From: a virus
Virus record (IMG/VR): IMGVR_UViG_3300042291_000666
Location: 54,326-118,325 of that record
Length of the DNA stretch: 64,000 nucleotides
Direction: 5' to 3' (one strand)
Translations under genes and position numbers: made by a program
Shown here: positions 1-17,830 of the stretch, piece after piece
How positions within the stretch are numbered: the stretch's first letter is position 1
Layout: each line of letters starts with the position of its first letter
The notes under the pieces: generated by a model
Told to the model about the DNA's origin: nothing
The model's input: only the letters and a program-made list of their open reading frames with translations
Database searches by the model: none

Positions 1-2
1 CT

Positions 3-1958
3 CCAGATCAAAGATATATTTCTGATTCAGCATATGTTGGTAAAGTAGATTTGATGACAGTATCTGATGTTGTAGATAAATACGGATATTTGATGAGCCA
101 AGAACAATTGGAATCATTACAAAGAATTTATCCGGCAAGATCTGCTCAATATCAAGTTAATGGATATCAAAATGATGGTTCTTATTATGATGCAACAAGA
201 TCACACGCTTGGAATACTAATGCCCCAGGTTTAGCATATAGACAATATACAAGTAACTACATGGCAGATCCTGCTAGAGGTGGTGATATATTAAATCAAA
301 TTTTAGGAGAGAGTGAAGACTTAGCTTACTTTGGTGATGGTAATTTAATGAGAGTATCTACAATTTATTGGAAGACTCAAAGAAAAATTGGACATCTTAC
401 TAAAATAGAATTTGATGGTGAAGTAACTCAAGAAATAGTTGATGAAACATTTAAAGTAACAGAAAAACCTGTTTATGATACATCAATCTTTAAAAATAAA
501 ACAAAAGATACTCTACTACAAGGAGAACATCTTGATTGGATTTGGATTAATGAGATTTGGGGTGGTGTAAAAGTTGGACCAAATGTACCTGCTATGTGGA
601 AGAGTTCTACAAGTAGTGAAATAAATCCAATATACTTGGGTATTAATAGAACTAAACCAGGTAGATTACCATTCCAATTTAAAGGAAACAATTCTTTATA
701 TGGTTGTAAGTTACCTGTAGAAGGTAGAGTGTTCTCTGATAGAAATACAAGATCTACTTCTTTAGTAGATTTAATGAAAGCATATCAGGTTGGATATAAC
801 ATGGTTAATAACCAGATTGCTGATATCTTAATTGATGAATTAGGTACAGTAATTATGTTTGACCAGAATGCATTACCACGTCACTCTATGGGAGAAGATT
901 GGGGTAAAAACAATTATGCTAAAGCATACGTAGCAATGAAGGATTTCCAAATGCTTCCTCTTGATACTTCAATTACTAATACAGAAAATGCTGTAAACTT
1001 CCAACACTACCAGACTCTAAACATGGAGCAAACTAGCAGGTTAATGAGTAGAATACAATTAGCAAATTACTTTAAACAACAATGTTTTGATGCAATTGGA
1101 ATTAATCCTCAGAGATTAGGTGGTCCGGTAGCAGCAGAAACAGCTACAGGAGTAATGAACGCAATGCAACAATCATATGCTCAAACAGAAATTTATTTTG
1201 TACAGCACTCTGATCAGTTAATGCCAAGAGTACACCAAATGAGAACAGACTTAGCTCAGTTCTATTATAGTACTAATCCAAGTGTAAGATTGAGTTATAT
1301 ATCTACTGAAGCAGAAAAGGTAAACTTTACAATCAATGGTACAGATCTTTTACTAAGAGACTTCAACGTATTTGCTACAACTAAGACAAATCATAGAGCT
1401 ATTCTTGAACAGTTAAAGCAAATGGCATTAACTAATAATACAACAGGTGCTAGTATATATGAACTTGGAAACATTGTTAAAGCAGATTCTATTGGTGAAG
1501 TAACAGATATCTTAAAAGATTCTGAAGCAAGAGTAAATGCTCAAAGACAAGAGGAAATGCAACAACAACGTCAAATGCAAGAACAACAGTTACAAGCACA
1601 GGCGCAAGAGGCTCAAATGAAAGTTCAGATGGAGCAAGAAGAAGCAGAGAAAAACAGACAGAAAGATATTACAGTGGCTGAAATTAGAGCTGCTGGATAT
1701 GGAGCTGGTGTAGATGTAAATGAAAATAAAATAAATGATTACCAGGATGCACTAAAAGATATTCAACAAACAACTCAATATAGAGAGCAAATGAATATGA
1801 AACGTGAAGAGATGGTAAGTAAGTCATCTACAGAATCTCAGAAACTTCAAGTTGAAAGAGAAAGAATTGCAGCACAAACACAGATAGCAAAGACGCAGTT
1901 AGATATAGCAATACAGAATAAAAACAAGTATGATAGCAAAAAACCAAAAGATAAATAA
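3..1958 (+). CDS. Portal protein (crAss-like), 5'-truncated by the window
   Basis: Frame is open from position 3, so the TTG at 51 is not the true start. Ends in a long Gln/Glu-rich coiled coil. Lies two genes upstream of the MCP, as in the Crassvirales capsid module. Confidence 0.8.
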   Translation, partial: PDQRYISDSAYVGKVDLMTVSDVVDKYGYLMSQEQLESLQRIYPARSAQYQVNGYQNDGSYYDATRSHAWNTNAPGLAYRQYTSNYMADPARGGDILNQILGESEDLAYFGDGNLMRVSTIYWKTQRKIGHLTKIEFDGEVTQEIVDETFKVTEKPVYDTSIFKNKTKDTLLQGEHLDWIWINEIWGGVKVGPNVPAMWKSSTSSEINPIYLGINRTKPGRLPFQFKGNNSLYGCKLPVEGRVFSDRNTRSTSLVDLMKAYQVGYNMVNNQIADILIDELGTVIMFDQNALPRHSMGEDWGKNNYAKAYVAMKDFQMLPLDTSITNTENAVNFQHYQTLNMEQTSRLMSRIQLANYFKQQCFDAIGINPQRLGGPVAAETATGVMNAMQQSYAQTEIYFVQHSDQLMPRVHQMRTDLAQFYYSTNPSVRLSYISTEAEKVNFTINGTDLLLRDFNVFATTKTNHRAILEQLKQMALTNNTTGASIYELGNIVKADSIGEVTDILKDSEARVNAQRQEEMQQQRQMQEQQLQAQAQEAQMKVQMEQEEAEKNRQKDITVAEIRAAGYGAGVDVNENKINDYQDALKDIQQTTQYREQMNMKREEMVSKSSTESQKLQVERERIAAQTQIAKTQLDIAIQNKNKYDSKKPKDK

Positions 1959-2087
1959 TTAGCGTTAGCTATATACTGCAAAAAACTTTGCAATATTATC
2001 AAATATAATAAGTTTAGGATAGTGTAAACTAAATAAAGAATTGTTATATTATATATATAAAGTATTAATTATTAAACCAACAATAAG

Positions 2088-3389
2088 ATGAGTACCAAAA
2101 ACAACACAATGAGTAGTAACGTAGAGACTTTAGATATTGACTTAGATACAATATTCAATGCAGCACCAAGCGGTGATGACATGACTTTGCCATCTGGAAA
2201 GGATACTAAATCTACAAACAACATTTTTTCAGGAATAAATAAGAAAGCAGATTTTTCATTTGCTGATCCAGATGCAGATGATGCAGATGATTTAACTGAT
2301 AAAGGTAAAACTCCAACATCAAGTGCAGATCTTCTTGCAGATGATGATAATGAGATTACACCTAAAGCAACTAAAGAAGATGGTAAAAGCATCCTTGATA
2401 GTTTAGGTGATGATGAAGATGAAGAAGAAAGAAAAGAAACTAGAGGTAGAAAACCTATTTCTGGAATTTCTGATGTCTTCTCTAAAATGATTAAAGAAGA
2501 TAAATTAGTACCTTTTGATGATGAAAAGTCTTTTGATGAATATACAGCAAAAGATTGGGAAGAATTAATTGAAGCTAATTTGGAAGAAAAAGCTAATCAA
2601 GTAAGACGTGAAACACCTAAACAGTTTTTTGCTAGCTTACCTGAAGAGTTACAAATTGCAGCAAGATATGTGGCAGATGGTGGTACTGACTTAAAAGGTT
2701 TGTTTTCCACTTTAGGTCAAGTAGAAGAAACTAAGGATTTAGATATTAAATCTGAAAGAGATCAGGAGATTATTATTAAAGAATATTTAAATGCTACTGG
2801 TTACGGTACTTCTGATGAGATTGCTGAGGAAATTGAAATTTGGAAAGATTTAGGAAAGCTTGAACAACAAGCTGCTAAGTTCAAACCAAAGTTGGATAAG
2901 ATGGCAGAACAAATTGTTATCAAAAAAGTGCAAGAGCAACAACTAAAACAAAAACAACAAGAGCAAGCTTCTAAAGCTTATATGCAAAATGTATATGATA
3001 CTTTAAAAGATGGTAACTTGGGAGATATTAAAGTTGATAGAAAAACTCAAGCAATGTTGTATAATGGTTTAGTTCAACCTAGTTATCCTTCAGTAAGTGG
3101 AAGAAATACTAATTTATTAGGACACCTATTAGAAAAGTATCAGTTTGTAGAACCAAATTATAAATTAATATCAGAAGCATTATGGTTATTGCAAGATCCG
3201 GAAGGATATAAAGCAAAGATCATGGATAAGGGAGCTCAACAAAGTATTGAGCAAACAGTAAGAAAACTAAAAACAGAACAGGGTAACCATAGTTCAAGTT
3301 CTCTTGGGATTCAAGATAAAGATGAAGAAACAAGAAGACAACCAACTAAAAAATTACCTAGAACCAACAACATTTTCAAACGGATTTAA
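2088..3389 (+). CDS. Putative capsid scaffolding/assembly protein
   Basis: 433 aa, very acidic low-complexity N-half and helical coiled-coil C-half. Sits between portal and MCP. Function inferred from synteny. Confidence 0.55.
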   Translation: MSTKNNTMSSNVETLDIDLDTIFNAAPSGDDMTLPSGKDTKSTNNIFSGINKKADFSFADPDADDADDLTDKGKTPTSSADLLADDDNEITPKATKEDGKSILDSLGDDEDEEERKETRGRKPISGISDVFSKMIKEDKLVPFDDEKSFDEYTAKDWEELIEANLEEKANQVRRETPKQFFASLPEELQIAARYVADGGTDLKGLFSTLGQVEETKDLDIKSERDQEIIIKEYLNATGYGTSDEIAEEIEIWKDLGKLEQQAAKFKPKLDKMAEQIVIKKVQEQQLKQKQQEQASKAYMQNVYDTLKDGNLGDIKVDRKTQAMLYNGLVQPSYPSVSGRNTNLLGHLLEKYQFVEPNYKLISEALWLLQDPEGYKAKIMDKGAQQSIEQTVRKLKTEQGNHSSSSLGIQDKDEETRRQPTKKLPRTNNIFKRI

Positions 3390-3434
3390 CAATCAAATAT
3401 ATAAACAATTAATAACTAAAAACAAGTAAAAATT

Positions 3435-5051
3435 ATGGCAACTCCAGTATTAAATAATGGGATTTTCCTAAGAGACACTAGCTACAAAGCAAGTTCTCAT
3501 GTTGATTCTTATCACTTGACTCAGATGCTAGGTTCAGCAGAACCTATGGATATGGGACCAATTGATTTATGGGCAATGACTCAAAAAGTTGAAATGCCTC
3601 TTTATCAAATGGCATCATTTGGTGGAAAGAATACTATCATGGTAGACAATGCTCGTGGTGAGTACAAATGGCAAACTCCTATTGCACAAGATCTTCCATA
3701 CATTGTGGCAGACATTGAACCAGCTAATGCCGCTAAAGGTGTAGATGGAACAACATTCAAAATTAAAATTTCTAAAAGAACATTTGGACATGGTGATATC
3801 ATCACTTATGACAAATACAATGGATTAGAACTTTACATCACAGCTGATGATATCATCCCTGCTGGTGACGGTTTTATCTATACTGTTCAATTAGTAAACA
3901 ACAACAACGTAGCTAGCTTAGACAATAAGTATTTAGCTAAAGGTACTAAGTTCTTCAGAAAAGGTTCTGCAAGAGGTGAGTACGGAGAAAGATTCTCTGA
4001 CATTGAAACAGGTTCTGGTTTCCGTGAGTTCTACAACTTTGTAGGAGGAGCTGAAGCACACGTACACTATTCTATTTCTAGCCGTGCTGATCTTATGATT
4101 AAAGGTGGTTTGAATGCAGATGGTACTGTACCTGTAACTGAAATCTGGAGAAACTTTGGTGCAAACAATGATCCTGCTGTACCTAGTATTGAAGGATTAA
4201 TTGCTAACATGGGTAAAGCTGGTGCAAGAGAAGCATTTGAAAATGGTTCATTGACTAGAACATTTATCACTAACATGGAAGCTGCGCATTTATCAAAAAT
4301 TGCTTCTGACATTGAAACTTACTTAATGTGGGGTAAAGGTGGTAGAATCAAACAAGATGGTCCAGATGATATTAGATTATCTGTGGGATTATGGGCACAG
4401 TTGGATAACTCATTCAAAAGAGTTTACAACAAGTCTTCTTTCACACTTGATATGTTTAAATCTGAATTGTATAACTTCTACCAAGGTAAAGTTGAGTTCA
4501 AAGGTCCAGATCCACAAAGATCACTTGTTGTTCAAACAGGTATTGGTGGTATGCAATTGATCAACAAAGCTATTGCTGATGAAGTATATGGTTCTGGTTT
4601 AGTACAAAATGCTAGTGATATTGGAGCTGTTAAAGGTTCTGGAATGGATCTAGATTATGGATTTGCTTACACTTCATTTACTATTCCTTTCTTAGCTAAC
4701 GTTAAGTTTGTATTGAACCCTGCGTTTGATAACTTGAATACTAATGATATTGAGAATCCATTAATTGATGGCCGTCCATTAAGTTCTTATAGCTTCATTA
4801 TCTTTGACGTAACAGATGAAGGAAATGATAACATCCATTTATTGAAATTATCTTGGGATAATCAATTGAAATGGTTCTACCAAAATGGAACTATGGATTA
4901 TATGGGAAGAACTCAAGGTTTTGCATCTACTGGTAACTTCAACGGATACCGTGTAATGATGTCACAAACTATGCCTGCTATTTGGGTTAAGGATCCAACT
5001 AAAGTTTTAAAAATTGTTATGAGAAACCCTATTACTGGTGGTTCATTCTAA
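3435..5051 (+). CDS. Major capsid protein (crAss-like)
   Basis: 538 aa, position after portal and scaffold. Codon usage visibly richer in C-ending codons (AAC, TTC, ATC), as expected for a highly expressed gene. C-terminal IWVKDPTKVLKI motif resembles crAss-like MCPs. Confidence 0.85.
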   Translation: MATPVLNNGIFLRDTSYKASSHVDSYHLTQMLGSAEPMDMGPIDLWAMTQKVEMPLYQMASFGGKNTIMVDNARGEYKWQTPIAQDLPYIVADIEPANAAKGVDGTTFKIKISKRTFGHGDIITYDKYNGLELYITADDIIPAGDGFIYTVQLVNNNNVASLDNKYLAKGTKFFRKGSARGEYGERFSDIETGSGFREFYNFVGGAEAHVHYSISSRADLMIKGGLNADGTVPVTEIWRNFGANNDPAVPSIEGLIANMGKAGAREAFENGSLTRTFITNMEAAHLSKIASDIETYLMWGKGGRIKQDGPDDIRLSVGLWAQLDNSFKRVYNKSSFTLDMFKSELYNFYQGKVEFKGPDPQRSLVVQTGIGGMQLINKAIADEVYGSGLVQNASDIGAVKGSGMDLDYGFAYTSFTIPFLANVKFVLNPAFDNLNTNDIENPLIDGRPLSSYSFIIFDVTDEGNDNIHLLKLSWDNQLKWFYQNGTMDYMGRTQGFASTGNFNGYRVMMSQTMPAIWVKDPTKVLKIVMRNPITGGSF

Positions 5052-5059
5052 CAAAAGAA

Positions 5060-5200
5060 ATTGTTAAGCTCCGCACCTCAGCTCTGGCCCTTCGGGGTCA
5101 TCTGGGGGGCGTCTTAGCAATACTGTGATAGGTTGGCCCATATCTCTATTCTGTGTGCATTGACAAGGGATGTCTAGCATGCTGGGGCCAGCTGATTCAC
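5060..5200 (+). ncRNA. Candidate structured RNA: two long imperfect hairpins followed by a U-tract
   Basis: GC-rich island. Hairpin 1: 5060-68/5113-21, 5076-81/5102-07, 5085-90/5095-5100 with a cUUCGg loop. Hairpin 2: 5125-28/5197-5200, 5131-39/5185-93, 5153-58/5177-82, 5162-65/5171-74. Many G-U pairs work only on the + strand. Confidence 0.7.
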
Positions 5201-5235
5201 TTTATTTTTTTTAACAAACTTAATTATAAAATATT

Positions 5236-5436
5236 ATGGCACTAGATATAAAAAAAGCAAACAAAACATATGAGTTTTCAAACTCAAATGTTTCTCAAAT
5301 TATTGCTTCAAAAGCTGTAGGTAAAGATATATTAGATAGAAATTATGCTGATAATGTTGCAGCAAAAGCAGCAGGATTAGGTAATGGAGATTTATATCAT
5401 ACGGCAGGAGTATTAAAAATTGTTTACGCGGCTTAA
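5236..5436 (+). CDS. Small putative virion protein
   Basis: 66 aa with an A-rich leader. The C-terminal YADNVAAKAAGLGNGDLYHTAGVLKIV resembles a short motif found at the ends of phage structural/fibre proteins. Confidence 0.6.
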   Translation: MALDIKKANKTYEFSNSNVSQIIASKAVGKDILDRNYADNVAAKAAGLGNGDLYHTAGVLKIVYAA

Positions 5437-5446
5437 GTCAAATAAA

Positions 5447-5475
5447 CTGGAGTAAGAATAAAAACCTTACTTTAG
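5447..5475 (+). other. Intergenic hairpin
   Basis: CTGGAGTAAG (5447-56) pairs with CTTACTTTAG (5466-75), including two G-U pairs. No strong U-tract follows. Confidence 0.4.
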
Positions 5476-5496
5476 AAATATTAATAATAATAAATT

Positions 5497-5517
5497 GTAC
5501 ATAATTATGTACTTTTG
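5497..5517 (+). promoter_or_regulatory. 16-bp palindrome overlapping a Bacteroidota -7 promoter element
   Basis: GTACATAATTATGTAC (5497-5512) is a perfect palindrome. TACTTTTG (5510-17) matches TAnnTTTG, about 45 nt upstream of ATG 5562. Confidence 0.55.
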
Positions 5518-5561
5518 ACAATGAGAAAACAATTATTAAATTTTAACACAAAAACCAAATT

Positions 5562-6578
5562 ATGAATGATTACACAATTGTAGAAAAGTATCAGCAAACA
5601 AAGAATCAAACTATTGCTATACGCCCTTATTTTAACTCTTCAAAAGAGAACATGGGTTTAGAGCATTACGGATTAGCTTTGCATGATGGAGTATTTCATG
5701 AAGAAACATTAGCTTGTTTAGAAATGAATGGGGTTAAACGTTATGTTACAGGATTAAATGAATTTGCTCCTGATGTAAAAATGTTAGCTCCAAAAGAAAA
5801 AGAAGCAAAGATCAAAGAAATTAGAAAAGTTGTTTCTCAATTAGAAGCTGAATTAGCTGCTAATGTTGTTGCTGTTGATGATAAAGATTTTTGGAACAAG
5901 CTTACAGTAATGAAGCCTGATAATTCAAAATTTTGGGATAAGATTAGTTTAAGATGTGGTAATGATCCTGTGTTTTTAGATCCAGATAAAGATCCTTATG
6001 ACTTAATTAAATTACATGCTATTCATGCAGGAGGTTTTTCTATTGTAGCAAAATCATTAAGAGAAGCAAGAGAATCAGGTAATCCACCTAAATTCTATCT
6101 TGATACAATGGAAGAAACATTAAGTACTAGAACAGAACTTAGTAAATTAAAAAATAAAGCATTGGTTGAACTACAAAAAATGTATGATTCAAATGCTTCA
6201 AAATTAATGTATGTTGCTAAAATCTGTGATGCTGATAGTGTACAGTATGTTAAAAATACACCTAATGATATTCTTTATGAAAACATGGATGAATATATTC
6301 ATGGTAATGGTGCTGAGTCTTCTAAGAAAAGAGCAGCTTCACAATTTATAGAAGTGTCAGGGTTATCAATGGAAGAATTAAAAATTAGAGCTTTAATTAA
6401 AGACTCTTTATATTATAGATTTATTACTACTAAAGCTGGAGGTTGGATTGAACCAATTGACAGTGGAATTAGATTGGGTAAGTCACCATCTGAATGTCTG
6501 GAATTTTTAAAGAATCCAGAGAATGAAGAAACATTGATGTCATTACTTAATAAAGTAGAGCCATACTGGAACTCCTAA
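5562..6578 (+). CDS. Conserved crAss-like capsid-module protein (crAssphage gene 75-like)
   Basis: 338 aa helical, charged protein just downstream of the MCP. Call is from synteny. Confidence 0.55.
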   Translation: MNDYTIVEKYQQTKNQTIAIRPYFNSSKENMGLEHYGLALHDGVFHEETLACLEMNGVKRYVTGLNEFAPDVKMLAPKEKEAKIKEIRKVVSQLEAELAANVVAVDDKDFWNKLTVMKPDNSKFWDKISLRCGNDPVFLDPDKDPYDLIKLHAIHAGGFSIVAKSLREARESGNPPKFYLDTMEETLSTRTELSKLKNKALVELQKMYDSNASKLMYVAKICDADSVQYVKNTPNDILYENMDEYIHGNGAESSKKRAASQFIEVSGLSMEELKIRALIKDSLYYRFITTKAGGWIEPIDSGIRLGKSPSECLEFLKNPENEETLMSLLNKVEPYWNS

Positions 6579-6588
6579 AATTTAAAAA

Positions 6589-7296
6589 ATGGATAATAAC
6601 ACACTTTTAATTAAATTAAAACAAAGACTAAACAAACTAGATAGCCAAGACTATGATAACATAGAGTGTTGGCAGTTTGTTGAAGCTTTTAATAAAGTAC
6701 AGGTAGACTGGTGTAGAAGAAATTTGCACGGGGGTAATATGTACAAAGAAGGTGATGAATTATCTAAAAGAAGAATTGATGATTTACAACCCCTGTTAAG
6801 AGAGTTATCTTTAACAGGAGTTGTAACTGATCAGTACTTTGAAACAAATAACTTTCCTATAAATACTTATTTAGAATACAAAAGAGTAAGTACGGATGCT
6901 ACAAGTGAATGTTGTCCAGATCCTAGATCAATGACAGTATATTTAGCTGAAGAGGCTAATGTATCTTTATTACTAAGAGATCCATTAAAGGATCCAAACT
7001 TTGAATGGGGTGAAACATTTTGTACAATGTTGGGTAACAAAATTAGAATATATAGAAAACCAGATTTTAATATTGTAAACCCTGTATTGACTTACTATCA
7101 AAAGCCTGTTTATATACAAATACAAGGTTGTGTTGATCCATATACAGGTGTTGTTAGTACAACTAATATACCTTGTCAATTTAAAGATGATGTTGTTGAA
7201 GTATTATTAGATGATACGGCTTCACTTATTGCAGGAGATATAGAGAACATTTATCAACAACAAAGGGGCCAAGGTTCTGCTGAAAGAAATAATTAA
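6589..7296 (+). CDS. Ring/head-tail connector protein
   Basis: 235 aa. N-terminal 'RLNKLDSQDYDN...FNKVQ' helix pattern, 'LTYYQKP' strand and C-terminal helix fit tail tubular/ring proteins, as does the synteny. Confidence 0.6.
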   Translation: MDNNTLLIKLKQRLNKLDSQDYDNIECWQFVEAFNKVQVDWCRRNLHGGNMYKEGDELSKRRIDDLQPLLRELSLTGVVTDQYFETNNFPINTYLEYKRVSTDATSECCPDPRSMTVYLAEEANVSLLLRDPLKDPNFEWGETFCTMLGNKIRIYRKPDFNIVNPVLTYYQKPVYIQIQGCVDPYTGVVSTTNIPCQFKDDVVEVLLDDTASLIAGDIENIYQQQRGQGSAERNN

Positions 7297-7298
7297 TC

Positions 7299-7826
7299 AT
7301 GGAAAATAAAATGAGATCTTTAAAGATAAATACTCAAGTAACTAAAACAATTAGCAGACCATCTGCAAAAGTTGAAGAAAAAGAAGAAAAAGAAGAAGAA
7401 TCTGTTATAGCTAAACCTGTACCAGATACTGGTGTTGGTGGAAGTTCTTTAGATACTATGACTGCTAATTTAGCAACTGAAATGATGAATGCTGCAATCA
7501 GTTTTCATAGACTTCATTTAAAAGTTAATGGAGAAGGTTCTTATTCAGCACATATAGCTTTAGGTGGTTTTTATGAAGGTCTACATGATCACGCTGATAC
7601 TTTAGTAGAAGGATATCAAGGTGTGTCTGAAAAACTTTTATCATACAAAGATTCACCAATTAGAACATTAGATACTGTAGCGGATGCTGTTGGATATTTA
7701 AGAGATTTATACAATACTGTTAACAAATTACAGGGTATGATGCCTTATTCAGAAATTGTAAATAATCTTGATCTTGTAAAAGATTCAATTAATTCAACAA
7801 AATATAAATTAATTTTTCTATCATAA
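7299..7826 (+). CDS. Ferritin/Dps-like four-helix-bundle protein (DUF5856-like)
   Basis: HRLHL...SYSAHIALGGFYEGLHDHADTLVEGYQG...NNLDLV...KYKL matches the Dps-like pattern H-x(11)-H...Y...D-x(3)-E. Confidence 0.7.
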   Translation: MENKMRSLKINTQVTKTISRPSAKVEEKEEKEEESVIAKPVPDTGVGGSSLDTMTANLATEMMNAAISFHRLHLKVNGEGSYSAHIALGGFYEGLHDHADTLVEGYQGVSEKLLSYKDSPIRTLDTVADAVGYLRDLYNTVNKLQGMMPYSEIVNNLDLVKDSINSTKYKLIFLS

Positions 7827-7843
7827 TTGGAAATTAAAAACTT

Positions 7844-7857
7844 TTGCTTATATTATA
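7844..7857 (+). promoter_or_regulatory. Putative late promoter motif
   Basis: TTGCTTATATTATA. The same TATATT core recurs upstream of the genes at 2088, 9503, 18764 and 35495. Confidence 0.45.
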
Positions 7858-7910
7858 TGTGTACACGTAGTACAAATTTATATATTTATTAATAACAAAA
7901 AACAAAAATT

Positions 7911-9374
7911 ATGGCTTATTTTAATCATGCGTTTTACAAAACGTTTGTTGCTACATCAACCCAAGCGTCAGCTGGAGTAGCAACCTCAGCATTAACTGCT
8001 GGTCAGCTTGGTTTAGTTACTGATGCATCATGGCAAACAATTGCTATTGCTGGTGGTACTTTACCTGCTAACTCATTAGCTTATCTTGTACAAGGTAGCT
8101 ACTACACTAAAGATACTATTGGAAACAATCCAGGTAACGGTGGTTACAAGGAATCTGTTAAATCAAAAGGTATCAATCCTAAATTCATCTCAAGAGCATG
8201 GGTTACTAACTGTTTATTGGCTCAACAATCTACTGCGTCTTTATCATTAGGACCTGATTGTGCTCCATGTGGAAAAACTCAGTTCATGAGAATTGATGTT
8301 AAAGGTTCTCCAACATTACGTTTCTTAAATCACAATGCTTATTCTATTGGTGATAGTGCAAACATTTGTTGTGTAGGTGATCAAGAATTTTTAGATCCAG
8401 CATTAGTTTCGGCTACTATGGCTCAAATGGTTCTTGCTAATCCTTTAATTACTCCATTTGTTGCTGAAGGTGACGTTGATGGTGTTGCTACTGCTACATT
8501 AGCTGGTGGTTCTGGATATTCTGTTGCTTCTGGTGTTGCTACTACTGGTGGTTCTGGATCAGGTTTTAAAGTTAATATTTTAACTGTATCTTCTGGTGCT
8601 ATTGCTACTTATAGTGTTGCTGCACGTGGTGCTGGATATGTTGTAGGTGATGTATTAACAGTTGCTGGTGGTACTGGTGGAACTTTCACAGTTACTGCTC
8701 TTACTGCAGGTGGTGTTGTAATTACTGCAACTACTGGTGCTGTAAGTGTACAGTCTGTTTACACTATTGCTCAAACTTTAGGTACAGCTGCTTCTGGAAA
8801 CTATGTTCCTTCACTTGATCCTAATGGTACAACTAAAGTTAGTGCTACAGTTAATTTTGTAGGAGCTTATGTTGATACTAAATTTGGTAACTGTTCATTT
8901 GATACTAGAGATCATTTTAACGCTGAACCTGTAGTTATCATTGCTTCTATCCTTGATGAAACTGGAAATCCATGTAATGATTGTGGTGTTGCTACAAGCA
9001 CTCCTGGTCAAATGCAACAAACTCAAGGTGAAAATGTAGTTAGAGATTTAATCTTATCTGAAAGATACAGACAATCTCCTTTCAATCAAGGAAATGCAGA
9101 TAGTGCAAGAATTAGAGAGATTGAGATGTCAGATGAAATCTTAGCTGCTGTTGATAGATCTGCTACTTATAAAGCATATTATATCCAACATACTGTTCCA
9201 AGATTCAACAACCCAAGTGGTGTGTTTGACAATGATCAATATGTTTACCAAGTATATGTTAAATGTTCTGACACTGCTGCTAACACTGCTGTATTAGCAT
9301 TGGTTAACAAAGTGGTTGCTTTAGCAAATGCTGCTGGTAATAACATTGCATTAGAAACTAACTCTTACTGGTAA
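7911..9374 (+). CDS. Structural protein, probably auxiliary capsid protein, with an inserted Gly/Thr-rich beta domain
   Basis: 487 aa, followed by a strong terminator. Contains the insert GGSGYSVASGVATTGGSGSG...GAGYVVGDVLTVAGG. Synteny matches the crAss001 auxiliary capsid gene. Confidence 0.5.
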   Translation: MAYFNHAFYKTFVATSTQASAGVATSALTAGQLGLVTDASWQTIAIAGGTLPANSLAYLVQGSYYTKDTIGNNPGNGGYKESVKSKGINPKFISRAWVTNCLLAQQSTASLSLGPDCAPCGKTQFMRIDVKGSPTLRFLNHNAYSIGDSANICCVGDQEFLDPALVSATMAQMVLANPLITPFVAEGDVDGVATATLAGGSGYSVASGVATTGGSGSGFKVNILTVSSGAIATYSVAARGAGYVVGDVLTVAGGTGGTFTVTALTAGGVVITATTGAVSVQSVYTIAQTLGTAASGNYVPSLDPNGTTKVSATVNFVGAYVDTKFGNCSFDTRDHFNAEPVVIIASILDETGNPCNDCGVATSTPGQMQQTQGENVVRDLILSERYRQSPFNQGNADSARIREIEMSDEILAAVDRSATYKAYYIQHTVPRFNNPSGVFDNDQYVYQVYVKCSDTAANTAVLALVNKVVALANAAGNNIALETNSYW

Positions 9375-9409
9375 TCAATATACCTTAAGAGGTTGATTTT
9401 TTAAAAATT

Positions 9410-9446
9410 AAGAGTAGGAGTCAAAAACTCCTGCTCTTTTTTTTTT
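9410..9446 (+). terminator. Intrinsic terminator
   Basis: AAGAGTAGGAG-tcaaaaa-CTCCTGCTCTT followed by a T-run. Confidence 0.85.
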
Positions 9447-9502
9447 CTTTATTCTAATTTTTTTGTATATTGTATATATAGTGTATCAAAATAAATATCA
9501 AA

Positions 9503-10075
9503 ATGGCTGACAAACATATATTAAGCTTAGAAATACCAACAGTATCTAACTGTAATCTTTTATGTATTAAAGATACTAGTCAGTATTCTTCAGAACTTGC
9601 TGTTGATTGTGAAGAATTATTAATCACACTTCCTGGCTTTACCGTACCTGTGTTACTTAAAGTAACAAAAGGTTTTGACATGTGTTTAACAGCATGTGCA
9701 CTTGCAATACAAAACCTTAATTGTGGAACTATACAACAAGAAATTCCTGATGGAATTTATGTTATTAGATATAGTGTATCTCCAAATTCAAAAGTTTATG
9801 TTGAATATAATCACTTAAGAGTTACTAGATTATTGACAAAATATTATGAAGTATTATGTGATTTAAATATTCAAGCATGTCAACCTGAATCATATAAACA
9901 ACAACTTTTAAATGAGATGAATTATATTAAAATCATGATTGATGCTGCTGTAGCTAATGTTGAATATTGTCAATCTCCAGCTCAAGGAATGCAATTATAT
10001 AATTATGCAAAAGATGGATTGAATAGAATAATTTGTCCTTCTGGTAATTGTGGGGGAAGAACATACTTATACTAA
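9503..10075 (+). CDS. Cys-rich structural protein (tail hub-like)
   Basis: 190 aa with IPDGIYVIRYSV and many Cys. Lies just before the fibre genes. Confidence 0.5.
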   Translation: MADKHILSLEIPTVSNCNLLCIKDTSQYSSELAVDCEELLITLPGFTVPVLLKVTKGFDMCLTACALAIQNLNCGTIQQEIPDGIYVIRYSVSPNSKVYVEYNHLRVTRLLTKYYEVLCDLNIQACQPESYKQQLLNEMNYIKIMIDAAVANVEYCQSPAQGMQLYNYAKDGLNRIICPSGNCGGRTYLY

Positions 10076-10133
10076 TAGTATATACTAAAAGTATATGATG
10101 ATAAAGATTTAAATAAACCAAAAATAAATTGAT

Positions 10134-10337
10134 ATGAACTGTGCAAATTGTAACAAAACATTTACTTGCGGTTGTCAAAAAGCATTTGATGACCAAGGTA
10201 CTGCCATATGTAAAACATGTGTGAATGAATGGGCTAATAAAAGATTATCTGGTGAAGCGGTTACACAACCATTACCAACAAGAGATTTAAATTTAGAATT
10301 AGCAGCTCAACAAATTAGAGATCTGAGAAATAAATAA
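10134..10337 (+). CDS. Small zinc-finger-like protein
   Basis: 67 aa with CxxC...CxC...CxxC and an A-rich leader. Tightly coupled to the next gene. Confidence 0.6.
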   Translation: MNCANCNKTFTCGCQKAFDDQGTAICKTCVNEWANKRLSGEAVTQPLPTRDLNLELAAQQIRDLRNK

Positions 10338-10339
10338 AT

Positions 10340-10840
10340 ATGGAGCAAGCACTTATTAAAAGAATTAGGACTGAACAAAATTTTGCAGTACAAGCATATA
10401 CAAATTTTAAAGAAATTAAATTTGGTATAGAACCATGTTGCTATGTTGATTTTGAGACAGCTGCTTTAAATAAGTATTTGTGTGATTGGCAAAACAGTGC
10501 TTCTAACAAAATAATTATTGATAGTGGTCAAGTAGGCATCTTTATTGAACCATTAGCAATAGTTAATACAGAAGCTAGTATGTCTTGCCCAGTTATACCT
10601 ACTAATGTTTGTACAATAATAGATCTTGAAAATATACTTTGTAATACAGGAACTTATATACATACACAAGATGTGCCATTAGCTGTTTGGGTTATAACAC
10701 ATAATTTAGGAAGTTTTCCTTCAGTGACAGTTGTTGATAATTTAAATCAAGTTGTTGTTGGTGATATAACTTACAATAGTTCAAATACATTAACAATAAC
10801 ATTTACCACTGCTTTTGCGGGGTATGCATATTTAAATTAA
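10340..10840 (+). CDS. Tail-associated structural protein
   Basis: C-terminal WVITHNLGSFPSVTVVD...ITFTTAFAGYAYLN small beta domain typical of phage fibre/hub proteins. Confidence 0.55.
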   Translation: MEQALIKRIRTEQNFAVQAYTNFKEIKFGIEPCCYVDFETAALNKYLCDWQNSASNKIIIDSGQVGIFIEPLAIVNTEASMSCPVIPTNVCTIIDLENILCNTGTYIHTQDVPLAVWVITHNLGSFPSVTVVDNLNQVVVGDITYNSSNTLTITFTTAFAGYAYLN

Positions 10841-10884
10841 AAACAATTAAAACAAATAATAACTAAAAACAAAAAACAAAAATC

Positions 10885-13152
10885 ATGGCAATTAAATATT
10901 TAAATAGTATTAACCTGAATCAGAATGAATTGCAATTTGCAGTTATTCAAAATTTAGGCACACCTCCTGCAACGGCAACGGAAGGTCAAATTTATTATGA
11001 CACAGTAACTGATAAGTTACAGTTAAGAACTGCTAGTGCTTGGGTTCCTATTCTTTCTGGTACAGATACGAATACTACTTATACTTTAGCTACAGCTCCA
11101 ACAGGAACTGCCATTAGATTAACAGGTAGTGATTCTACTACTAATGATGTTACTATAACTGGTGCAGGTACTGTTGTTGTTACAAGAACAAGTGCTAACA
11201 CATTAACAATTACAGGAACTGATTCTGCTGCAGGTACGGTAACTTCAGTAGTTGCTGGTACGGGTATTTCTATTACCGGAACTGCTACTATAACTCCTAC
11301 AGTAAACATTCTTTATGCTGGATTATCTAATGCTATTTTAGCTGCTACTGCAGCTACTCCAGTTGGTGCTGATACATTATGGTTTAGTGATGCAACAGAT
11401 AATACAATTAAGAAAGCTTTACTTTCTACATTCCCTGGATTTGGTGCTGATGGTACTGTAACAAACGTTACTGGTGCTAACTCTACATTTGTTTCAACAG
11501 CAGTTGCTACTGGAACTACAACTCCAGTTATTACAGCTAGTTTAAGTGCAACAGGTACACCAAGTGCTACTACTTTCTTAAGAGGTGATAATACATGGGC
11601 TGCTGCATCAAATTATACTAGTTGGTCATTACAAGGTTCAGCGGGAACTACAGAAGTTATTTCAAGTGGTGAAACTGTTAACTTTTTTGCTGGTGCGGGT
11701 ATAACAACTACTGCTTCTAATTCATTAGGTATTAATTATTTAAGTATTGTAAATACAGGTGTTCTTGCACTTACTGCAGGTACTAATATTTCTATTACAG
11801 GTACTAATACAAATTTAACTATTAATTCAACTGACCAATTCCAAGGTACAGTAACTTCTATTACTTTAGCTGCTGGATCAGGAACTGGTACTGCAATTAC
11901 ATCAAGTGGTACATTTACATTTGCTGGAGGTACAGGTATTACAACTTCTGTATCAGGAACTACTGTAACTATTAATGCTACAACTTTAGGTACTGTAACA
12001 AGTATTACTGCAGGAACTGGTTTAACAGGTGGTACAATTACTTCTACCGGTACAATTGCTGTTAAATATACAGGAGCGGGTAACATTGTAGATGCAGCAC
12101 CAACTGGAATACCTTTAACAAGTTTTGATTATTTCTTAACACATAATTTTATAACAAATAATGCTGAAAAATCTCAAGTTGGTGCATTATCAATAAGTGA
12201 ATTAGATGCACCTTCTGCAGATTTAAGTATTAATACATTTAAATTAACCAATGTTGTTAATCCAACAAATGCTCAAGATGCTGCAACTAAAAACTATGTA
12301 GATACTACATTAGCTGGTTCAGGTGCTTTAATTTACCAAGGTGGATATAACGCATCTACAAACGTACCTAACCTTGATACAACATCAAATATTCTTATTA
12401 ATAGAGGATTTACATATACTGTTACAGTAGATGGTTTATTCTTTGGGGAACAAGTTAGAGTTGGTGATTTAATTATTGCAAATGTAAATATTCCTGCTAA
12501 CAGTCCTTCAAATGCTATAACTAACTTTACAATTGTTCAAGATAATGTTGATTTAGCTAGTACAACTACTGTGGGTATTGCTAGTTTTGCTGCTGCAAGT
12601 TTTGCAGTAAGTGCAGCTGGTGAGGTTACAATCAAAAATGGTGGTGTAATTTTAGGTACACAAACTACAGGAACTTATAACCCTACTGTTGGTTTATCAC
12701 AAACTATTGATATTGGAAATAATACTACATCTGGTGTTGCAGTATTTAATACTGTTACATTAACAAATGGTGTTATTACAGCATTTACCACTGAGAATAT
12801 TCAAGCATCAAGTACAGCTAATCCTGGGGTAATTTTAATTGCAACAGATGTTGAAGCTACTGCTGGTGTTGTAACTACTAAAGCTGTTACTCCAGCACAA
12901 TTAAAATCTAATGCAACTACAATTGCTAATGCAGCTATAGTAGCTAGAGAATTTAAACAAACTGTTACTTTAGCATCAACAGTTATAAATCATGAGTTAG
13001 CTTCAAGAGATCTTATAGTTCAATTGTATGATACAGTTACTTTTGAAACTGTTTATGCAGATATTATTAGAACAGATGTAAATAACTTAACTGTTATTTT
13101 TGGAGCAGTTCCAACTAATGCTATTAGAGTATTAATTACTAAAATAGGATAA
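10885..13152 (+). CDS. Tail fibre protein 1
   Basis: 755 aa, Thr/Gly-rich with GTVTS repeats. Contains LTNVVNPTNAQDAATKNYVD and ATDVEATAG...KAVTPAQL fibre motifs and a C-terminal HELASRDLIVQLYD domain. Confidence 0.75.
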   Translation: MAIKYLNSINLNQNELQFAVIQNLGTPPATATEGQIYYDTVTDKLQLRTASAWVPILSGTDTNTTYTLATAPTGTAIRLTGSDSTTNDVTITGAGTVVVTRTSANTLTITGTDSAAGTVTSVVAGTGISITGTATITPTVNILYAGLSNAILAATAATPVGADTLWFSDATDNTIKKALLSTFPGFGADGTVTNVTGANSTFVSTAVATGTTTPVITASLSATGTPSATTFLRGDNTWAAASNYTSWSLQGSAGTTEVISSGETVNFFAGAGITTTASNSLGINYLSIVNTGVLALTAGTNISITGTNTNLTINSTDQFQGTVTSITLAAGSGTGTAITSSGTFTFAGGTGITTSVSGTTVTINATTLGTVTSITAGTGLTGGTITSTGTIAVKYTGAGNIVDAAPTGIPLTSFDYFLTHNFITNNAEKSQVGALSISELDAPSADLSINTFKLTNVVNPTNAQDAATKNYVDTTLAGSGALIYQGGYNASTNVPNLDTTSNILINRGFTYTVTVDGLFFGEQVRVGDLIIANVNIPANSPSNAITNFTIVQDNVDLASTTTVGIASFAAASFAVSAAGEVTIKNGGVILGTQTTGTYNPTVGLSQTIDIGNNTTSGVAVFNTVTLTNGVITAFTTENIQASSTANPGVILIATDVEATAGVVTTKAVTPAQLKSNATTIANAAIVAREFKQTVTLASTVINHELASRDLIVQLYDTVTFETVYADIIRTDVNNLTVIFGAVPTNAIRVLITKIG

Positions 13153-13168
13153 ACATTACTTTTATATG

Positions 13169-13207
13169 AAGGGGGGATTTCATAAATTCATGTTTTCCCC
13201 CTTTTTT
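13169..13207 (+). terminator. Intrinsic terminator
   Basis: AAGGGGG...CCCCCTT stem followed by a T-run after fibre 1. TACTTTTG (13224-31) downstream could restart transcription. Confidence 0.65.
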
Positions 13208-13256
13208 ATAAATAAAAAAATTGTACTTTTGGTACCAATATTAAATAAAATTATAG

Positions 13257-16200
13257 ATGGCAATAAGATTTTTAAACAGTATAAATATCCAAGCAGGTAC
13301 ATTAACTGTATCAACTATAGCTAACTTAGCCACAGCATCTAACGTATTTTTAGTTTCAGATGGTGGTTTAGTTAAATATAGAACTGCCGCACAAGTGCGT
13401 TCTGATATTGGAGCAGGCACAGGTACAGTAACTAGTGTTGCTGTAACTAATGGTACTGGTATTTCTGCATCAGTTGCAAATGCATCTACTACACCAAATA
13501 TTACTATTACAAATACAGACTTGGGTTCTTCTCAAGCTATATTTAAAAACTTTGCAGTTGCTGGTGAAAGTACAGTAGTTGCAGATAACAATAATGATAC
13601 ATTAACTTTTGTCAATGGAGCTAACGTTGCTATTACTACTAATGCAACAACAGATACAATAACTATATCCGCAGCAAATACTAATAACTTTCCATCAAGT
13701 TTAGCTTGGGATACCGGAACAGGTATTTTAACTTTAGGTAGAAGTGGTTTATCTTCTTTAACTGTAGACTTAGACGGTAGATATTTAGAACTAGCAGGTG
13801 GAACTTTAACGGGTGGATTATATGGAACATTTGCTAGTTTTGGTGGTACACTTAATTCATATGTTACAATAGATAATTTAGCAAGAAGATTTAATTCTCC
13901 TGAAGGTGCAACTTATATTACAACTAACTCTTCAATAGTTGGAGCTATTAAAATTAAATTACCTATAGCAAGAAATAATTCATCTACAATGATGATGTTT
14001 ACTGTTAAGATCTATCAATATAGTACAGGTAATTGTCATGAATTACAAATTGCTGGATATAATTATGCTGGAGGAAGTTGGTATAATACATCTGTTACAA
14101 ATTTAACAGATAATGGTGGTAATTTAACTGTAAGATTCGGTACTGATGCAACATCTGATTGTGTATGGATTGGGGAAACTAGTTCTAGTTGGTCATATCC
14201 ACAAGTATTTGTAACTGACTTTCAAGCAGGATATAGTGGTCAAGCTAATTCTTGGGGAGAAGCTTGGAACATTACATTTGAAACAGCATTTGATACAGTA
14301 GAAGATACAAGAATAGCATCACAAGTAATTACAAGTAGAAATATTGGTGTACAAAATGTTCTTACAGCTACTGCATTAACTTCAATGAATATATCTCAGT
14401 TTACTAATGATAGTGGTTATACTACTGCTACTGCTGTTGCTAATAATTATGCTTCAAAATTTCTTACATTAACTATAAATGGTACAGGATATGATCTTAG
14501 TGCAAATAGATCTTGGAGCGTTGGTACTGTAACATCTTTTTCTTTTGGATTAGGCACAACAGGAACAGATATAAATGCTACCCTTACTAATAATACTACA
14601 ACACCTGCATTAACTTTAAATGTTCCTGATGCAAGTGCTACTGCAAGAGGTTTAATTACAACGGGTACACAAACTATTGCTGGTGCCAAAACATTTTCAT
14701 CTGGTGTTACTGCATCAAGTTTTGCTTTTGGTACATCATCAATATATAATTATAGTGGTTTAAATGTAATATATCAAGGTGCTACAGGAACTACACATAA
14801 TTTTGGCGGTGGCCCTGGTTTTGTACAAAATAATTTATCAGTACCTAATGGTACATTTAATATTGCTTTACAAACAGCATCAACTATAGCATCATTTGAT
14901 GCATCTAAAAATGTAGTAAGTTTACCTACTGCAACATATCCTTCATTAGCAGAACTTGCTTATGTCAAAGGAGTTACATCTGCTATTCAAACACAACTTA
15001 ATGCTAAAGGTACTGTCAATTCAATAACCGCAGGAACTGGATTAAGTGGTGGAACAATCACAAACTCAGGAACTATTGCGTTAGCAAATACATCTGTTAC
15101 TGCAGGATCATATACTGCTGCTAATATTACAGTAGATGCTCAAGGTAGAATTACATCAGCATCAAATGGTTCTGGTGGTGGTGGTATTACAGGTTCTGGT
15201 ACTGCTGGAAATATTACTAAATGGAGTACTACAACGGGTGTAACAAACTCTATTATGACAGATAATGGTACTACCGTTACTATAAATAGTGGTACATTAG
15301 CTTCACCAGTAAATAGTTATTTGCCAGTACAAACTTTTGCATTAAATAATGGAAACGGTGAGTATGTTGAATTTGGTTCTTTAAGAACAGCTACAGGATC
15401 AGACTGGACAAATGCTGGATTTAGAATACAAGAAAAAATTGACTCAACTTGGATGGGGTATATGCAGTTCAATGGAACTGGTAATCTAGGTGGTATTTCA
15501 TTTGGAACAGGTACAAGTGCTGCAAGTAGACAATCTATTGTAGAAAGAGTAATAATCAATAGTGCTGGTAGCATGGGTATAGGAATTGCTCCACTTAGTA
15601 CACTTGATGTAAATGGTACTATTACAACTAGAGGTCAATTATATATAACATCTGGAGGTTCATCTGTACCTAATTGGTTTTTCCAATTAAATGGTTCTGG
15701 AGATTTAGTTGTTGATGAAGCAATAACTTCTAAAAATTTTATATTTAGTAATTCAGGTAATGTATTTTTAAGTAATGGTGGTCAAGTAACAATTGGTACA
15801 ACAGATGTTGGTACACCTAATTATGGACTTCTACCACAATTAACAGTAGCAAATGCTTCTGGTGGTGTTTTAGATATAAGAACTACTAATACAAATGTTG
15901 TAGCTGGTACATCATTGGGTAGAATACAATTTACTGGAAAAGATGATTCACTTACAGGATATACTTCTGCAGCAATTGAAGCTATTTCAGCAGGTACTAT
16001 TAGTAGTGGTGCAAACGGAGGTGGTAAGTTAAAACTAATGACTTCTATAGCAGGTTATGGTACACCTCCTTTACCTAGAATGTGGATTAATCAAAATGGT
16101 TATGTTACTGTAGGATCTACAGACTTAGGATATAGTGAATTTGCTGTAAATGGTAGTGTTTATGCAACAAGTGGTGTTTATGCTGCTTCTGGTAATGGTT

Positions 16201-16721
16201 GTGCTATTGGAAGTCCTACTATTATAGGTAATGATGTAGGTTTATATGGTCTTGCTGGTGATGAAGTAATTGCCATGTTAAATTATAGTGATGGTTATTA
16301 TTGGTATGGTGGTGGATCAATAAAAACTACAGGTTCATTTGTTGGTATTAGTGCATTACCTGATTATCCATTACATGTAGGATTAGAAAATGGAAATATT
16401 TCTATATATGCTGATTATGATATTGTTGCTTTTTCTGATGAATCTGTAAAAGAAAACATTAGACCTATTGAAAATGTAATTGAAAGAGTACAAAAATCAA
16501 GAGGTGTATTATATGATAGAATTGATAGTGGTCATAAAGACAATATTGGTTTTATTGCACAAGAGTTAGAACTTACTTTCCCTGAATTAGTTGTTACTAA
16601 TGAAGATGGAACTAAAGCTGTTAAATATCAGAATGCTGTAGCTGTTATGTTTGAAGCTATTAAAGAACAGCAAAAACAAATAGATGAACTAAAAGAATTA
16701 GTAAATAAATTAATCAAATAA
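13257..16721 (+). CDS. Tail fibre/spike protein 2 with C-terminal intramolecular chaperone (peptidase S74)
   Basis: 1154 aa with GTVTS repeats and VDAQGRIT. From 16431, FSDESVKENI...IGFIAQELE..FPELV...EAIKEQQKQIDELK is the S74 autocleaving chaperone signature. Confidence 0.85.
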   Translation: MAIRFLNSINIQAGTLTVSTIANLATASNVFLVSDGGLVKYRTAAQVRSDIGAGTGTVTSVAVTNGTGISASVANASTTPNITITNTDLGSSQAIFKNFAVAGESTVVADNNNDTLTFVNGANVAITTNATTDTITISAANTNNFPSSLAWDTGTGILTLGRSGLSSLTVDLDGRYLELAGGTLTGGLYGTFASFGGTLNSYVTIDNLARRFNSPEGATYITTNSSIVGAIKIKLPIARNNSSTMMMFTVKIYQYSTGNCHELQIAGYNYAGGSWYNTSVTNLTDNGGNLTVRFGTDATSDCVWIGETSSSWSYPQVFVTDFQAGYSGQANSWGEAWNITFETAFDTVEDTRIASQVITSRNIGVQNVLTATALTSMNISQFTNDSGYTTATAVANNYASKFLTLTINGTGYDLSANRSWSVGTVTSFSFGLGTTGTDINATLTNNTTTPALTLNVPDASATARGLITTGTQTIAGAKTFSSGVTASSFAFGTSSIYNYSGLNVIYQGATGTTHNFGGGPGFVQNNLSVPNGTFNIALQTASTIASFDASKNVVSLPTATYPSLAELAYVKGVTSAIQTQLNAKGTVNSITAGTGLSGGTITNSGTIALANTSVTAGSYTAANITVDAQGRITSASNGSGGGGITGSGTAGNITKWSTTTGVTNSIMTDNGTTVTINSGTLASPVNSYLPVQTFALNNGNGEYVEFGSLRTATGSDWTNAGFRIQEKIDSTWMGYMQFNGTGNLGGISFGTGTSAASRQSIVERVIINSAGSMGIGIAPLSTLDVNGTITTRGQLYITSGGSSVPNWFFQLNGSGDLVVDEAITSKNFIFSNSGNVFLSNGGQVTIGTTDVGTPNYGLLPQLTVANASGGVLDIRTTNTNVVAGTSLGRIQFTGKDDSLTGYTSAAIEAISAGTISSGANGGGKLKLMTSIAGYGTPPLPRMWINQNGYVTVGSTDLGYSEFAVNGSVYATSGVYAASGNGCAIGSPTIIGNDVGLYGLAGDEVIAMLNYSDGYYWYGGGSIKTTGSFVGISALPDYPLHVGLENGNISIYADYDIVAFSDESVKENIRPIENVIERVQKSRGVLYDRIDSGHKDNIGFIAQELELTFPELVVTNEDGTKAVKYQNAVAVMFEAIKEQQKQIDELKELVNKLIK

Positions 16722-16722
16722 T

Positions 16723-17043: not shown

Positions 17044-17049
17044 TAAGAT

Positions 17050-17469: not shown

Positions 17470-17489
17470 TGTAAATAAATTAAAAAAAT

Positions 17490-17825: not shown

Positions 17826-17830
17826 TAGTT

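Follow-up and report, generated by a model that had tools for sequence, protein, structure and literature searches.

A stable two-hairpin RNA segment at the site of the simple capsid-gene terminator in one lineage of freshwater crAss-like phage

The DNA analyzed here, referred to below as the window, is a 64,000-nt stretch (bases 54326–118325) of IMG/VR record IMGVR_UViG_3300042291_000666, a virus sequence of 118,325 bp that is complete and has direct terminal repeats, and the element under study is a GC-rich, strongly folded segment within the 3' untranslated region (3' UTR) of its major capsid protein (MCP) gene, on the same strand as the gene. Comparison with related loci has shown that, as judged by alignment, such a segment replaced a short G-rich capsid terminator hairpin in one lineage of freshwater crAss-like phage. 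With moderate confidence, we interpret the element as a strain-specific compound intrinsic terminator that also protects the 3' end of the major capsid mRNA (positions of all features are given in Table 1). Termination combined with 3'-end protection is the simplest role to propose, because the element occupies the site of the plain intrinsic terminator of its relatives.

An earlier note on this DNA, made from its letters alone, had described a GC-rich structured RNA right after the capsid gene, and this description was borne out with coordinates exact to the base: the minimum free energy (MFE) fold consists of two hairpins, 62 and 76 nt long and only 3 nt apart, followed by the U-tract UUUAUUUUUUUU. 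Folded alone, hairpins 1 and 2 reach −31.1 and −28.3 kcal/mol, respectively; in hairpin 1 an apical stem (5085–5090/5095–5100) closes the cUUCGg loop, and in hairpin 2 a GC-rich 9-bp stem (5131–5139/5185–5193) stands above the basal stem. The MFE of positions 5052–5215 on the plus strand is −61.6 kcal/mol vs. −45.3 ± 3.7 for shuffled sequences (z −4.37, none of 200 shuffles being as good), and the minus strand yields only −35.5 kcal/mol (z −0.11, with 95 of 200 shuffles folding equally well). This asymmetry arises because 7 of the 47 base pairs are G-U (the others being 26 G-C and 14 A-U), as the note had argued in assigning the structure to the plus strand. The GC content across 5060–5200 is 53% vs. 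36% and 25% in the 151-nt flanks and 31.6% in the window, which agrees with the contrast to the surroundings noted before, and the element is the sole 80-nt stretch of the window with a GC content of at least 0.52. Among 9,454 stretches of 150 nt taken from both strands of the 118-kb genome, the element has the lowest folding energy (−60.4 kcal/mol; mean −24.0, sd 6.3), and it ranks first among 280 segments located 5' of a T6+ run. A side observation from the same ranking is the second most stable stretch (G000:C1:9701–9850, plus strand, outside the window; −51 kcal/mol, GC 0.25), presumably a long AT-rich inverted repeat.

Table 1. Positions, in window coordinates, of the element, its parts and the adjoining genes.
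Feature	Position	Strand	Basis	Remarks
Major capsid protein (MCP) gene, 538 aa	3435..5051	+	Open reading frame (ORF); Pfam Crass_capsid E 6.2e-30; PHROG 11589 major head protein E 3.3e-31	
Left copy of imperfect direct repeat, TTCTAACAAA	5046..5055	+	Repeat search	Includes the MCP stop codon
Segment without counterpart in relatives, 151 nt	5055..5205	+	blastn vs. related locus L001; covariance model	
Hairpin 1	5060..5121	+	MFE fold	24 bp in four helical segments; cUUCGg cap 5090–5095; GC 58%
Hairpin 2	5125..5200	+	MFE fold	Basal stem 5125–5128/5197–5200 adjoins the U-tract; presumed terminator stem
Hairpin 2 apical domain	5140..5184	+	MFE fold	Inner helices 5153–5158/5177–5182 and 5162–5165/5171–5174; hypervariable part
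U-tract UUUAUUUUUUUU	5201..5212	+	Read off the sequence	Presumed terminator release site
Right copy of flanking direct repeat, TTTTAACAAA	5209..5218	+	Repeat search	9/10 identical in core
Downstream ORF, 66 aa	5236..5436	+		Begins 24 nt past the U-tract

The comparison with relatives was based on 598 candidate IMG/VR stretches (597 confirmed), the best 80 of which were kept and supplemented with 80 further loci; the regions 3' of the MCP stop codon from these 160 loci provided 86 distinct usable sequences, with 8 unusable. By its sequence, what 71 of the 86 relatives carry behind MCP is a textbook intrinsic terminator: a T5+ run located 31–51 nt past the stop codon and preceded by a short hairpin of the GGGAGG...CCTCCC type. 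The remaining sequences either lack a T5+ run within 260 nt (13 of 86) or have the first such run inside the next ORF (2 of 86). The replacement is best seen against related locus L001 (MCP protein listed as 100% identical; nucleotide identity of the flanks 95% and 93%), where the blastn alignment stops at window position 5054 and resumes at 5206 (L001 positions 4620 and 4657), and the 36 nt found there in L001 contain a simple hairpin; the last 7 T of the U-tract align with the T-run of the L001 terminator. The contrast of 151 vs. 36 nt, along with the folding energy, supports the earlier statement that the element is much larger than a simple terminator.

The element itself was found in none of the 86 distinct MCP-downstream regions, and a blastn search of the 80 related loci returned only the query. 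A covariance model that combined the sequence of the element with its MFE structure (a single sequence, and therefore a weak model) scored 205 bits on the window and matched nothing else at E ≤ 10, either in 635,600 bases (window and 80 loci) or in 362,705 bases of the 80 further loci; likewise, it matched none of 30 whole related records, 6 of which are at least 90% complete. Conservation in relatives, which the earlier note had named among the tests of its proposal, is thus lacking in all 86 regions and all 30 records.

The region behind the capsid gene is variable in other respects as well. Among the relatives listed, differing small ORFs follow the terminator in differing relatives, and because of this variation the MCP 3' region looks, by sequence comparison, like a hotspot of cassette exchange. 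Two loci (L075:4618–4840 and L079:4621–4840) lack the small ORF after MCP and carry, behind a simple terminator, ~150 nt of GC-richer structured non-coding sequence (z −4.19 and −4.65) with no Rfam or tRNA match. These segments were considered as potential kin of the element and rejected, being unrelated to it by the covariance model, Rfam and ARAGORN.

When public sequencing runs were searched with 14 sampled 31-mers of the element, 20 runs gave matches; they belong to 15 studies (dated 2016–2025) that sampled freshwater, lakes, rivers and estuaries. At least half of the 31-mers are present in 19 of the 20 runs, and 2 of the 20 are metatranscriptome libraries. Four runs (two RNA and two DNA) were compared as assembled contigs over positions 4600–5700. 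A 232-nt contig of run X15 is identical to the window over 4961–5192, and a 226-nt contig of run X10 covers 5000–5214 with one difference; their recovery from independent runs rules out an assembly artefact. Thus, the element is a real and geographically widespread allele. It is observed in one context only, as all four element-bearing contigs run on from the MCP 3' end. In both DNA runs deeper contigs (depth 14.7 and 31) join position 5051 to 5229 or 5236, the one in X10 with 64 other letters in between, which corresponds to the simple-terminator form. Accordingly, element-bearing contigs, at a depth of 3.3–3.8, represent a minority form in these two lake/river samples, where both forms co-occur. 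Contigs from the RNA libraries cross the U-tract from the MCP side, reaching 5230 in X19 and 5280 in X20, with the reservation that RNA libraries can contain DNA. The end of the X19 contig at 5230 was rejected as an RNA 3' end, since adapter-like letters occur there. RNA-library depth drops from MCP to the downstream genes, a trend that, with strains mixed and depth given per contig, allows no inference about expression or termination.

The two RNA-library contigs also provide natural variants of the fold, those of X19 mostly in the apical domain of hairpin 2. For this domain the earlier note had proposed an alternative pairing of 5140–5147 with 5166–5173, which is indeed available: formed as an exclusive 7–8-bp helix, it is less stable than the nested hairpin 2 fold by 1.8 kcal/mol (−26.5 vs. 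−28.3 kcal/mol; by 2.6 kcal/mol in the X19 allele). Its 5-bp core, 5143–5147 (UCUCU) with the loop 5166–5170 (AGGGA), is a candidate loop-to-internal-loop pseudoknot, as the topology allows the inner stem to form alongside it, a fully paired 5-nt loop being nonetheless strained.

The X19 contig (4902–5230) has 14 substitutions and 3 indels relative to the window. The apex of hairpin 2 (5146–5179) accounts for 12 of these substitutions and 2 of the indels, a clustering of the substitutions within 34 of the 329 nt that has a binomial P of about 1e-10; no change affects hairpin 1 or the outer stems of hairpin 2. In the inner helices, U5154·G5181 becomes C-G, G5155·U5180 becomes A-U, U5156-A5179 becomes U·G, G5157-C5178 becomes G·U, and A5163-U5173 is replaced by G-C in a double compensation; in the core of the alternative pairing, C5146-G5167 becomes G-C (again a double change) and U5145·G5168 becomes U-A. 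All 7 of these 7 affected pairs are canonical, two by double and five by one-sided changes; the pair C5158-G5177 is lost, with both sides changed. The alternative helix loses its end pair, A5140-U5173, to the change U5173C, which serves as compensation in the inner stem, so that 7 of 8 alternative pairs are kept together with the inner stem. When 7 transitions and 5 transversions were placed randomly in 5143–5182 (200,000 trials), at most one broken pair was obtained in 0.5% of the trials, at least two double compensations in 6.7%, and both in 0.26%. An RNAalifold consensus of the two alleles retains hairpin 1, the outer stem and both inner helices. The X19 allele was rebuilt from difference tables with one substitution not displayed, and two sequences are too few for statistics of the R-scape type. 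The second allele, X20 (4992–5280), has position 5087 deleted and a G inserted after 5098, along with 10 further substitutions that are not displayed; with that indel pair alone, hairpin 1 still folds and retains its cUUCGg cap (−27.5 vs. −31.1 kcal/mol), and no difference is displayed at the rows of the outer hairpin 2 stems. Overall, the fold of the element is probably under selection, since the X19 changes are clustered yet structure-preserving and include two double compensations.

As a terminator, the element combines regular and irregular features. The base of a GC-rich hairpin abuts a U-tract 150 nt past the MCP stop codon on the plus strand, in a position equivalent to the terminators of the 71 relatives described above. 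The canonical dimensions of a terminator (stem of ~5–20 bp, loop of 3–8 nt) are exceeded, the "loop" of hairpin 2 being a 45-nt folded domain. In the mechanism that we propose, hairpin 2, with its 4-bp base and 9-bp GC stem, would act with UUUAUUUUUUUU to release a host-type RNA polymerase, and the internal loop near the hairpin base would make termination leaky, with read-through into the 66-aa ORF. Expression of this ORF probably relies on read-through, because the 24-nt gap leaves no room for a promoter. Efficiency lower than that of the ancestral hairpin is expected, because the strong 9-bp stem ends 7 nt short of the U-tract and only the weak 4-bp stem adjoins it. The UUCG-capped 24-bp hairpin 1 followed by the tight hairpin 2 would create a very stable 3' end that blocks 3'-to-5' exonucleases (alternatively, hairpin 1 might be a processing site), and such an end, combined with a leaky stop, would determine how much capsid mRNA there is compared with the transcripts of the genes that follow. 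Closure of the outer stem would require a compactly folded apical domain, a requirement that would account for the retention of pairs in natural variants. The RNA-library contigs that continue past the U-tract fit leaky termination, provided that their reads truly derive from RNA.

Several observations weigh against a terminator as the whole explanation. Besides the atypical stem geometry just described, a simple terminator scan of positions 1–20000 lists 8 sites, and the element is not among them. Its −61.6 kcal/mol is far from the −15 to −25 kcal/mol that the WebGeSTer DB description gives as typical, along with 7–14-bp stems and 4-nt loops (PMC3013805). Simple terminators with small hairpins suffice in sister strains and, elsewhere in this phage, at other genes (e.g., at 9410–9438), and the extra 115 nt are therefore unneeded for termination. 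Terminator function alone would not lead one to expect the 34-nt cluster of substitutions, which hints that the apex is either a module for specificity or a tract of recombination. Terminators do not usually combine a constant scaffold with an apex that is hypervariable yet preserves its structure. Finally, the covariation comes from one divergent allele, and some of the pseudoknot pairs were chosen with the changes already in view, although the helix itself was proposed beforehand. Template-switch mutation in quasi-palindromes can also yield concerted changes in hairpins.

A number of known systems resemble the element in position or architecture. The T7 terminator T-phi, located after gene 10 (major capsid), is large, stable and incompletely efficient, and it raises capsid mRNA over that of the downstream structural genes. 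Position and logic are the same as proposed here; T-phi differs in being a single hairpin that serves a single-subunit phage polymerase, and it has no sequence relation to the element. The lambda sib/tI structure and the T7 RNase III sites are long imperfect hairpins that lie 3' of a gene and control how stable its message is, and the lambda structure overlaps a terminator; here, too, the likeness is in long imperfect hairpins downstream of a gene, with no sequence similarity. Small RNAs derived from 3' UTRs share the terminator of the parent mRNA, and the element is like them in being a structured segment that follows the stop codon of a highly expressed gene and ends in the terminator of that gene, and unlike them in its absence from relatives and in the lack of target enrichment for its internal loop within the window. 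Tandem-hairpin terminators are catalogued as U- and V-shaped classes in WebGeSTer DB (PMC3013805), and hairpin clusters are treated as a kind of terminator in PMC8355165. The element is similar to tandem-hairpin terminators in having two hairpins 3 nt apart after a stop codon and a U-rich trail behind the second one; it is different in hairpin length (62 and 76 nt), in total energy, in the 45-nt structured apical domain that takes the place of a loop, and in a possible pseudoknot. A survey of structured RNAs in IMG/VR phages reports Rho-independent terminators in 1,241 of 8,495 candidates (PMC10690425), which implies that terminator-containing structured motifs are common in phage intergenic regions. 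The same survey demands covariation among homologues, and by exact and gapped patterns the element has no IMG/VR homologue.

The strongest competitor, which we regard as unlikely, is that the element is a separate functional non-coding RNA (ncRNA) in the capsid 3' UTR, freed by termination at hairpin 2 and by 5' processing, whose apex recognizes an RNA or protein partner. Its size and stability far exceed what termination needs, and the X19 allele is telling in this respect, as the substitutions are concentrated in the apex above an unchanged scaffold and leave the nested stems as well as the loop-to-internal-loop pairing in place. Persistence across the 15 studies and the expectation that the carrier is the most abundant late transcript also speak for such a role. 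At the same time, a fast-folding terminator would equally predict structure-preserving change, and the absence from all distinct relatives and whole records indicates that the element is dispensable for the phage group. Matches to the complement of the 13-nt internal loop are not enriched in the window (4 found vs. 5.7 expected), and, to our knowledge, no discrete RNA, processing site or partner of the element has been described.

Nor do the known RNA families provide support. Rfam 15 has no match above gathering score in the 64-kb window, and a search of positions 4950–5350 (401 nt) at E ≤ 10 placed nothing inside the element except a fragment of PhotoRC-I (14 nt, 10.7 bits vs. a gathering score of 45). 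Since ARAGORN detected no tRNA or tmRNA genes in the window either, the earlier judgment that the element is neither a tRNA nor a known ribozyme can be retained. The proposal of an undescribed ncRNA or cis-element fared less clearly: stability, plus-strand specificity and the lack of an Rfam match stand in its favor, and the absence of conservation and the location at the plain-terminator site of relatives stand against it. A literature search retrieved no description of the element or of the TCG avoidance discussed below, which is no proof of absence from print. By its sequence, the element is non-coding, because the two short overlapping ORFs (minus strand, 38 aa; plus strand, 30 aa), which were considered as genes and rejected, lose their start codons in X19.

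A more specific version of the ncRNA proposal, which we consider distinctly doubtful, is that of a modular RNA with a conserved two-hairpin scaffold and a 34-nt apex (pseudoknot or two-state helix) that is exchanged or diversified among co-occurring strains, with its pairs retained, as a specificity module for an RNA or protein partner, e.g., an anti-defence decoy or a strain-specific regulator that would be abundant late in infection.

It is improbable, in our estimate, that the element is instead a neutral or nearly neutral foreign insert, acquired via illegitimate or microhomology-mediated recombination or as a small mobile element and persisting as a working terminator. Composition is the main argument in its favor, with GC of 50–58% in a genome of 31.5% GC and one of only 7 genomic TCG trinucleotides despite strong avoidance, as would fit a recent arrival. 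The whole 118-kb genome contains 7 TCG and 16 CGA vs. ~195 and ~209 expected from dinucleotides, and no TCGA at all, and ACGT occurs 138 times; the overall CG observed/expected ratio is ~0.2. Exactly four TCG are present in the window (3653, 5092, 8409 and 14137), the second inside the UUCG loop, in full agreement with the earlier count. Close relatives also avoid TCG/CGA (0–17 TCG+CGA per 7.6 kb vs. 18–36 expected), and the avoidance is weaker in more distant ones (e.g., L056, L072, L074 and L075); restriction or modification pressure behind it is our guess. Overall, the TCG in the UUCG loop and the high GC content could reflect a recent foreign origin or a structural constraint equally well.

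An insertion would also be in line with the restriction of the element to a single strain lineage, its minority status in the two DNA runs, and the imperfect direct repeat TTYTAACAAA that flanks it. This repeat might be a trace of microhomology-mediated insertion; in AT-rich sequence such evidence is weak and its significance uncertain. The 9-mer AAATTGTTA of the 5' outer arm of hairpin 1 (5058–5066) recurs exactly 47 nt upstream (5011–5019), in the MCP coding end, a repetition that, seen in the sequence, may be due to chance or be a vestige of the origin of an insert. Opposed to a neutral insert are the single genomic copy of the element, the continuation of all four element-bearing contigs from the MCP 3' end, and the non-random placement of the X19 changes relative to the fold. 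Signs of a miniature inverted-repeat transposable element (MITE) or another mobile element were sought, and the search gave a single copy, no collection matches, no terminal inverted repeats at the ends, and only the imperfect 10-nt flanking repeat. A blastn search of the element against 50,697 phage records gave no match, and 10 scans with exact or gapped patterns for four parts of the element gave no match, and thus neither a donor nor another context, in viral, metagenome and genome contig collections, with diverged homologues beyond this sensitivity and the record of the window itself possibly outside the scans.

Quite improbable is a primary role, raised in the earlier note, as an RNase III processing or retroregulation site, with a cut in hairpin 1 that stabilizes the capsid mRNA or destabilizes read-through transcripts. 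Phage RNase III sites are typically long hairpins with small internal loops, those of T7 acting as stabilizers and lambda sib as a destabilizer. Hairpin 1 corresponds to this description, with its 24 bp interrupted by small internal loops, and lies between a highly expressed gene and the genes downstream; relatives, however, have no such site at this position, and RNase III sites carry no reliable sequence signature.

Still harder to credit, and very unlikely in our view, is a conformational switch in hairpin 2 (riboswitch-like or a thermosensor) that governs read-through into the 66-aa ORF. It would account for two exclusive apical folds that are close in energy in both alleles and for the alternative pairs kept in X19, including the C-G to G-C double change. 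However, both folds keep the outer terminator stem intact, so a switch alone would not gate termination; moreover, no riboswitch family matches, and among the relatives listed the same ORF follows a plain terminator. A packaging RNA similar to the phi29 pRNA, or a self-cleaving ribozyme, has next to nothing to recommend it: a two-domain shape and a covarying loop pairing that is possibly intermolecular have to be set against the lack of any Rfam match at E ≤ 10 over the 401 nt (pRNA and all small ribozyme models included) and the absence of the element from relatives, and crAss-like phages package DNA via terminase.

The genomic surroundings are those of a structural module. The portal gene is located at 51–1958 of the window, and the MCP is distant from its nearest named phages, with 28.5% identity to Leptolyngbya phage Lbo-JY46 and ~25.6% to Cellulophaga phages phi4:1 and phi17:2. 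The 66-aa ORF has no Pfam or PHROG match, and in close relatives (among those listed) the ORF follows the simple terminator at the same spacing. Further downstream, an inverted repeat, TGTACATAATTATGTAC, at 5497–5542 lies just 5' of a promoter-like site (TTGACA-16-TAAATT) that precedes the gene at 5562; a similar repeat, TGTACAT...ATGTAC, is present at the same place in relative L013, and judging from sequence, the repeat may be an operator or a late-promoter element. The ORF at 7299–7826 (175 aa), part of the head module, gives hits to DUF5856 (E 1e-13) and to PHROG 858 (E 2e-17), a "starvation-inducible transcriptional regulator", an annotation that is unexpected amid structural genes.

Additional observations were made outside the window. 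Genes for tRNA-Leu(taa) and tRNA-Arg(tct) were detected by ARAGORN at G000:C1:37144–37428 (minus strand). The two other GC-rich islands of the genome, with GC up to 0.65 (G000:C1:44079–44184 and 44640–44704, corresponding to L162:680–785 and 1241–1305), are C-rich leaders directly 5' of two paralogous minus-strand genes of ~109 aa (MSVFFRKLRVN...); they share the motif CCCCAGCTAATT, have no Rfam match and fold moderately (z −2.9 and −1.4).

Overall, the scope of the finding is one strain lineage of a widespread, uncultured freshwater crAss-like group. If the interpretation of the element as a compound terminator and 3'-end protector is true, nature has provided an experiment: within the same lakes, near-identical phages differ in having a 36-nt hairpin or a 151-nt module after the gene that they express most strongly, and a comparison of both forms could show how terminator architecture affects the stability of capsid mRNA and read-through in this group. 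If the pattern of a constant scaffold and a variable apex marks a recognition module, the element would point towards a new type of phage RNA.

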